A stretch of DNA of 10,000 nt, from positions 5,177,152 through 5,187,151 of the forward strand of contig NC_092066.1 of NCBI RefSeq assembly GCF_039877785.1, given 5' to 3'. The position numbers were made by a program, and so were the translations under genes. Positions 1 to 4,844 of the stretch are shown in pieces. The notes beneath the pieces are model-generated. The model did no database searches. It was not told the origin of the DNA and saw nothing but the letters and a program-made list of their open reading frames with translations. Positions within the stretch are counted from its first letter, which is position 1. Every line of letters starts with the position of its first letter. The DNA comes from Chaetodon trifascialis (taxonomy: Eukaryota).

Positions 1-280
1 ATCCAGAACACATATTCACAGTGCAGTGTCTTATTAACAAATACTGCACCAGAAATTTGCTCTGACATTATTTCCCTGTCTGTCTTTTCTGAAAGAAGAG
101 GTGTTTCTGCAAACAGCCCACATAGATTCGTCCTCTACAAGCAGGAGAGGAAGAAGAGGCGGTGCAGGACTTGATATTCATCCTGTTCCGCTTCTTCCTC
201 GTCCTTCATACCACTCTACCCTCCCACCCCTTCCTCAACCCAGCCTGCTGTCCTCTGCTCCGCCATCCCCAGGCCCTCAC

Positions 281-390
281 CAGAAATATCCCACACTCGC
301 ACGGTCTGGTCCAGACTGGCTGACACCACCAGGTCCTCGGATGGGTGGAACTGGGCACACATCACGTAGTGATTATGGCCGGTCAGCACA
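281..390 (-). CDS. COPA: COPA exon 6. Encodes (C)[36 protein letters not shown](G). It contains the codon orthologous to human Ile164.
   Basis: Acceptor tcatctgcag and donor gtgagg flank it. The translation matches human COPA residues 129-166 (T146S is the only change). The next exon (LRKKN...) is not found in 1-280 and must lie beyond the window edge. Confidence 0.9.
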
Positions 391-4128: not shown

Positions 4129-4844
4129 TTTAATTCTTTAAATTACCAACACTGTCATTAACATTTTTTCCAGTTTCCTAACATGATAATAGGGAATTAA
4201 CTCGTTAATTGAACTCCTGTAAAGCCTGAAACAGAGGTGTGTGTTTAGTGAAGTGCCAGAGAATCATCGCTACCCCGGTGTAAACCTGGGGCGGTATTGC
4301 AAAGTCACACTGATAAAACTATGATCTTTAGTGCTTAGCTGAATGATAACAACGTCTTTGCTCTATGCTGACACCTAAAGTAATAACTGTTTAACATTAA
4401 TAACAATAACATTTTCAAAGGCACTGTTTATACCCGTGAAGTGGTTTGATAGATTTGACCATGAGGCTAAACAGTGTTGTAAAAAACATGGAGAACGGCA
4501 GTGGTGTTTTCTTCTTAAAGAAAGCTGTTAAAACTAAACCGTGAAGGAGCGATGGGAACCGCTGACAGACTAATGCAGAGATGTTAAAATGTTCTCATTT
4601 GTGCGTTCAGTGATTTTAAACACGAGTGTGTGTGTGAGTGTGTGTAGTTCCTGTTGGTTTTCGTGCCTCCTCCTGATGTTTCTGCATCCACACACCTCCC
4701 ACTTGACGGAGAACAGTGTCGACGGTCTGGTCACCCTCCTGCCCGACCTTTGTTTCGCACTCCTTCGCTCCCTGCCTGTTGCTGACACACACTGAGTGAC
4801 CCCTATGGTTCCAGCGCTTCTGATTGGACCGCGCCGCTACCTGC
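4129..4844 (-). other. PEX19: PEX19 3' UTR; its extent is uncertain.
   Basis: This sequence lies downstream of the stop codon. There is no canonical AATAAA on the minus strand between 4080 and 4844. The nearest poly(A)-signal variant is ATTAAA (complement of 4129-4134). A (GT)n tract at 4626-4645 lies within the putative UTR. Confidence 0.3.
4626..4645. repeat. Imperfect (GT)n microsatellite in the PEX19 3' UTR.
   Basis: gtgtgtgtgtgagtgtgtgt. Confidence 0.85.

Follow-up and report, generated by a model that had tools for sequence, protein, structure and literature searches.

The end of one COPA exon raises a two-part question in Chaetodon trifascialis: is the adenosine recoded by ADAR in mammals (I164V) also edited in this fish, and which editing-complementary sequence (ECS) would fold back onto it? 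The site is among the few recoding sites that are conserved across vertebrates and has been studied in cancer. The window, that is, the whole stretch of 10,000 nt that was analysed (contig NC_092066.1, positions 5,177,152 to 5,187,151), contains this exon and the first 280 nt of the intron that follows it. COPA exon 6 is located at positions 390 to 281 on the minus strand (110 nt, phase 1/1) and encodes C129-S165 plus the first base of G166; it is bordered by ...ctgcag on the 5' side and gtgagg on the 3' side, and its sequence (T GTG CTG ACC ... GTG TGG GAT ATT TCT G) translates in phase over 36 full codons. When the six COPA exons of the window are joined (1825-1786, with the ATG at 1825, 1408-1295, 1169-1096, 813-733, 580-504 and exon 6, all on the minus strand), the ATT codon at 287-285 becomes residue 164, matching human COPA. 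ADAR is predicted to act on the first base of this codon, the A that pairs with plus-strand position 287 and stands seventh from the exon end. Translation and residue counting thus uphold what a first-pass annotation had read from the letters of the window, namely the exon end, the position of the ATT, its orthology to Ile164 and the 7-nt distance of the site from the 5' splice site. Upstream of COPA, a complete PEX19 gene is found on the minus strand (~7500-4848), and the predicted protein is 100% identical to Chaetodon trifascialis PEX19; in the Menidia locus (L004), Nicastrin comes after COPA.

ADAR favours a U or an A as 5' neighbour and a target A placed in an A:C mismatch or in an A-U pair. 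The Ile164 adenosine is preceded by U (GAU-A-UU), so that its local context is favourable. The protein encoded by exon 6 is 100% identical among six teleosts, cow and lizard, and conservation of the target A alone is no excess over the expectation for a conserved Ile codon. As far as the sequences tell, the signal above chance is a conserved complementary block in the intron of the orthologous loci.

The site in the window is the ortholog of a known recoding site, and in this respect the novelty is low. COPA I164V (human chr1:160302244, hg19) is one of 59 conserved mammalian ADAR sites, with editing levels of 26-46% in human and mouse (Pinto et al. 2014, PMC4053846) and of 7-14% in rat, cow and opossum (Supplementary Table S3 of the same study). 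The first-pass annotation had described it as a site recoded in mammals; this stands for the human ortholog, but the site is not mammal-only, since 31.7% editing is reported at the orthologous adenosine of zebrafish copa (chr2:36902890, Zv9; Table S7 in Pinto et al. 2014, PMC4053846). This zebrafish evidence is a single RNA-seq-based table entry. In the main text of a 2021 atlas of zebrafish editing, copa is absent; by the atlas's own statement, its pipeline may miss some isolated recoding sites. The COPA site depends on ADAR2 (ADARB1), as established by knock-down and rescue in human and mouse cells (PMC9718120), and mammalian Copa has been scored as lacking a conserved adjacent stem (Daniel et al. 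2017, PMC5654063). We found no description of the COPA ECS itself in the open-access literature. Transcript-derived COPA proteins in the databases have Ile at residue 164, and Val occurs only in non-vertebrate genomic sequences; database proteins therefore give no indirect evidence of editing. In some non-vertebrate homologues (P0036, P0104, P0113), Val is genomically encoded at the position equivalent to Ile164 (RVWDVS); the residue that editing would produce is thus tolerated in nature.

Within the 280 nt of intron that are visible in the window, the pairing-score scan detected no ECS, the best score being 24 against a background mean of 22.6. The local fold of positions 1-420 revealed nothing above background around the ATT, and an inverted-repeat search of the window returned no duplex at the Ile164 site. 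These three analyses agree with the earlier statement that the visible intron holds no extended duplex. The AAUAUC hexamer that the same annotation had singled out is present, but at 178-173, slightly off the 174-180 given there; it forms part of a local hairpin loop and lacks conservation in other fish. Two further complements were rejected. A 10-nt match between 281-290 and 1055-1064 in an upstream intron (repeat I22) has no extension and is among the top hits in no ortholog. The complement at 4533-4569 (score 40, z 3.9) lies in the 3' region of PEX19 and, being upstream of the COPA start codon (1825), is outside the COPA pre-mRNA.

We compared the orthologous loci of six teleosts (Pampus, Carassius, Menidia, Dissostichus, Chaetodon auriga and Conger) and of Bos, Podarcis and Petromyzon. 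The locus of the congener C. auriga (L007) aligns along the entire window with 88-91% identity. Intron 6 is 1618-1690 nt long in five of the six teleosts, from a cyprinid through percomorphs (L001, L003, L004, L005, L007), and a conserved ECS block with the core CTGGAAACATCCACAC is situated 1.06-1.45 kb into the intron in all six. In the intron alignment this core begins at +1152 in C. auriga, +1116 in Pampus, +1129 in Carassius, +1058 in Menidia and +1114 in Dissostichus; the ECS counterpart in Conger is CCAGAGACATCCACAC, at about +1440. In these first five species the aligned block, which lies at +1058 to +1152 depending on the species, reads CTGGAAACATCCACA(C/T)CTG..., and its reverse complement, GTGTGG-ATGTTTCCAG, is the end of the exon with a C opposite the target A. 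No other 30-mer of the intron is as conserved as this block (23 of 30 positions invariant, versus 20% overall), and in the pairing-score scan it outscores every other complement of the exon end within ±5 kb in each of the six teleosts (z 3.5-6.2). RNAduplex scans with 70-90-nt windows did not single it out by energy in most species, this approach being too permissive. Other conserved blocks exist in the intron, for instance ATCCAACGCCCCATCAGAGCAC, about 110 nt upstream of the ECS core. The conserved block complementary to the exon end agrees with the earlier views that editing here needs an ECS and that any ECS would be found in the downstream intron.

The folding analyses converge on the same pairing. 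Given the exon arm and the ECS arm, RNAalifold, unguided, paired columns 23-62 with columns 72-113 and left the target A unpaired. In global minimum free energy (MFE) folds of 1.3-1.7 kb, comprising the exon and the intron through the ECS, the segment from exon -25 to intron +12 pairs with the distal block in six of six teleosts, C. auriga included, forming an imperfect duplex over the ATT in which the target A is again unpaired in every species. The base opposite this A is an invariant C in the six ECSs. In the specified duplex, 90.6% of cells are paired, compared to 33-57% when the partner is slid. The two arms also change in step: the exon of Conger has ATC TCT in place of ATT TCC, and its ECS follows with U-A replaced by C-G and C-G by U-A. 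In Pampus and Menidia, ATC replaces ATT with no matching change in the ECS, adding a C:A mismatch two nucleotides 3' of the site. Some decay of the duplex is thus tolerated, and lineages may differ in their level of editing. With six teleost sequences the covariation statistics are modest, as 21-25 of 500 shuffles reach the observed values.

In the window, the 5' arm of this long-range editing duplex corresponds to positions 306 to 267 on the minus strand, from exon -25 to intron +14, and includes the 5' splice site (GT at 280-279). This arm is identical to its C. auriga counterpart, for which the duplex consists of about 32 base pairs spanning the 5' splice site, with GUGAGGGC pairing with GCUCUCCC. 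C. trifascialis probably carries the same ECS about 1.14-1.18 kb downstream, outside the window, as judged from its congener.

The first 14 nt of the intron belong to the editing duplex, and the intron start is compositionally unusual as well. The G-run-rich beginning pointed out in the first reading is indeed present: the tract from +9 to +90 (positions 191 to 272, minus strand) contains 52% G, versus 17-23% G in the whole introns of related fish. The tract after the 5' splice site has 40-55% G across the six teleosts, and a C-rich tract (41-48% C) is found just 5' of the ECS core in the same species (e.g. L007:19680-19790 in C. auriga). This G-rich/C-rich mirror also occurs in Conger, where the sequences are unalignable, and it may lengthen the duplex to more than 100 nt. 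Extended pairing between the two tracts was no better than in dinucleotide shuffles (energy z -1.1 to -2.7; pairing score z -0.9 to 2.6); what is demonstrated is the compositional mirror and not a specific helix of that extent. Runs of G that follow a 5' splice site are also classical splicing enhancers.

Two further structures are conserved in this intron. A hairpin at positions 204 to 144 on the minus strand (intron +77 to +137; repeat I9, RNAalifold) has a folding energy of -33.2 kcal/mol (z -6.0); its 5' arm is rich in purines and its 3' arm in pyrimidines. Five other teleosts have a hairpin at the equivalent position (z -5.2 to -6.6), that of Carassius differing in sequence. We rejected a microRNA precursor as the identity of this hairpin, because Rfam gave only sub-threshold matches (16-24 bits against cut-offs of 60-100) and the arm is not conserved in Carassius; no Rfam family reached its gathering score in the window or in the C. 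auriga locus. The second structure is a helix whose 5' strand, GCAGAAACACCUC, occupies positions 111 to 94 on the minus strand, begins with UGCAGAAACACCUC and includes CAGAAACACCUC at 109-98. Its partner, GAGGUGUUUCUG, is located at intron +324 to +341 (L007:18973-18990 in C. auriga), just outside the window. In this helix 90% of cells are paired and five pairs have changed on both sides, a value that none of 500 shuffles equalled; in Carassius, where the strands are CAAAAAUGCCUC/GAGGCAUUUUUG, there are three fully compensatory changes. Like the editing inducer elements (EIEs) described by Daniel et al. (2017, PMC5654063), the hairpin is stable, conserved and about 80 nt from the duplex, making it a candidate EIE, although with about 60 nt it is shorter than typical EIEs. 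As a hypothesis only, the hairpin and the second helix could act as editing inducer elements or as elements of splicing kinetics.

Outside the teleosts, the same exon end has partners of another kind. In cow, the ECS complement GTAGAAATTTTCCATCTGTCG occurs at about +2.8 kb of the same intron, with more pairing into the intron, and the block is 76.6% conserved over 124 nt in lizard, at +2.46 kb. Unlike the teleost ECS, which is about 1.1 kb downstream and places a C opposite the target A, the cow and lizard geometry pairs this A with U, next to a U:U mismatch. The system of C. trifascialis nonetheless shares with mammalian COPA I164V the gene, exon 6, the codon and the adenosine 7 nt from the 5' splice site, and its ECS would likewise lie in the downstream intron. 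In the 1551-nt intron of the lamprey Petromyzon marinus (L010:10272 onward), neither a convincing ECS nor a G-rich start was detected; the lamprey retains the ATT codon (GAC ATT TCC G|gtgcaa). A locus of the shark Heterodontus francisci (L002:15557-18017) was dropped as an informative ortholog: its copy of the exon is frame-shifted by a one-base deletion, and its satellite-filled downstream intron contains a tandem repeat of about 1.9 kb with a unit of about 40 nt. Either an assembly artefact or degeneration of the copy may explain this.

Based on these comparisons, we propose that in the pre-mRNA of C. trifascialis the last ~25 nt of the exon and the first ~14 nt of the intron (306 to 267) would pair with an ECS about 1.15 kb downstream, producing an imperfect duplex of about 32 bp in which an A:C mismatch would set the Ile164 adenosine against the conserved C. 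This adenosine would then be deaminated by an ADAR, most likely the ADAR2 orthologue by analogy with mammals, and a fraction of the mRNA would encode Val164. Since such a duplex requires the intron and extends over the 5' splice site, editing would have to precede the removal of intron 6. Such an exon-intron ADAR substrate would be ancient. The first-pass annotation had concluded that editing in this species could not be decided from the window, which was too pessimistic: the congener and five other teleosts carry a conserved ECS that pairs with an exon end identical to that of the window, and editing is for this reason strongly predicted. We put the probability that the Ile164 site is edited in C. 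trifascialis at roughly 80%.

A first alternative to this prediction is that Ile164 is kept purely for the structure of the WD40 propeller, that the site is unedited here and that conservation of the distal block reflects some other function, such as regulating splicing by masking the 5' splice site. The protein encoded by the exon is indeed 100% conserved across vertebrates irrespective of editing, a pure splicing role is conceivable for a duplex that covers the 5' splice site, and Pampus and Menidia have an uncompensated mismatch beside the site. Against this reading, editing of the zebrafish ortholog is reported at 31.7% (Pinto et al. 2014, PMC4053846), and a cyprinid, Carassius, shares the block; all six teleosts place a C opposite the target A, Conger has its compensatory changes in the helix that flanks the site, and a splice-site mask would have no need to reach 25 nt into the exon, past the target A. 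We therefore regard an unedited site as quite unlikely. It is very unlikely that the functional ECS is instead located within the window, be it the AAUAUC at 178-173, the CAGAAACACCUC block at 109-98 or the upstream-intron decamer at 1064-1055. There are some points in favour of these candidates: the decamer forms a 10-nt inverted repeat with 281-290; by reading the sequence, CAGAAAC is able to pair with AUUUCUG; and the block at 109-98 is conserved in percomorphs and pairs at 10 of 12 positions with GGGAUAUUUCUG, with a C opposite the target A. Yet no candidate is longer than 10-12 nt and the best intronic score (24) is at background level; the AAUAUC is unconserved and confined to a hairpin loop; the 109-98 block pairs with a conserved partner of its own, at +324 to +341, as attested by the three compensatory changes in Carassius; and the global folds pick the distal ECS in six of six species.

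Accepting the distal ECS as the partner of the exon end in teleosts, its relationship to the amniote element deserves separate consideration. The two may have arisen independently, with ECS turnover supplying non-homologous partners that keep the same adenosine edited. This is a possibility that we hold only tentatively. In its favour, the teleost ECS lies at +1.06 to +1.45 kb and the amniote one at +2.5 to +2.8 kb; the geometries differ (an A:C mismatch and a bulged G versus an A-U pair and a 5' U:U mismatch), the flanks are not alignable, and no convincing ECS was found in lamprey. On the other hand, both elements are in the same intron and in the same orientation and reach across the 5' splice site. 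Similarity is expected of any two complements of a near-identical exon, and a decision on homology therefore needs intermediate taxa (gar, bichir, coelacanth, frog, shark). A more comprehensive model, which we consider unlikely as a whole, would regard teleost COPA intron 6 as a multi-part structured RNA. A duplex masking the 5' splice site, the mirrored tracts, the hairpin at +77 to +137 and the helix at +170/+340 would together tie ADAR access to the splicing rate and in this way set the Ile/Val ratio, and the teleost (A:C, 1.1 kb) and amniote (A-U, 2.5-2.8 kb) ECSs would be non-homologous replacements of each other.

The R/G site of GRIA2 (GluA2) is the textbook exon-intron substrate of ADAR2; its ECS is directly adjacent, within a hairpin of about 70 nt. 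As in GRIA2, the recoded A of COPA is a few nucleotides upstream of the 5' splice site, in an imperfect exon-intron duplex that includes the donor, and in both cases editing must come before splicing. In contrast to the R/G site, the COPA ECS is more than 1 kb away and in this respect is nearer to the long-range elements of the GRIA2 Q/R, GRIK2 Q/R and GABRA3 type. For the window, the outcome is mainly a clean annotation: the orthologous site is in this exon, and so is the exon-side arm of the duplex. The understanding of ADAR substrates is unchanged and the additions are modest. What is new is a testable map of the teleost ECS (sequence, position and A:C geometry) together with two conserved intronic structures; we found no explicit description of either in the searchable literature. 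With such a map, zebrafish laboratories could delete the ECS and so make an editing-null copa allele that leaves the protein sequence untouched.
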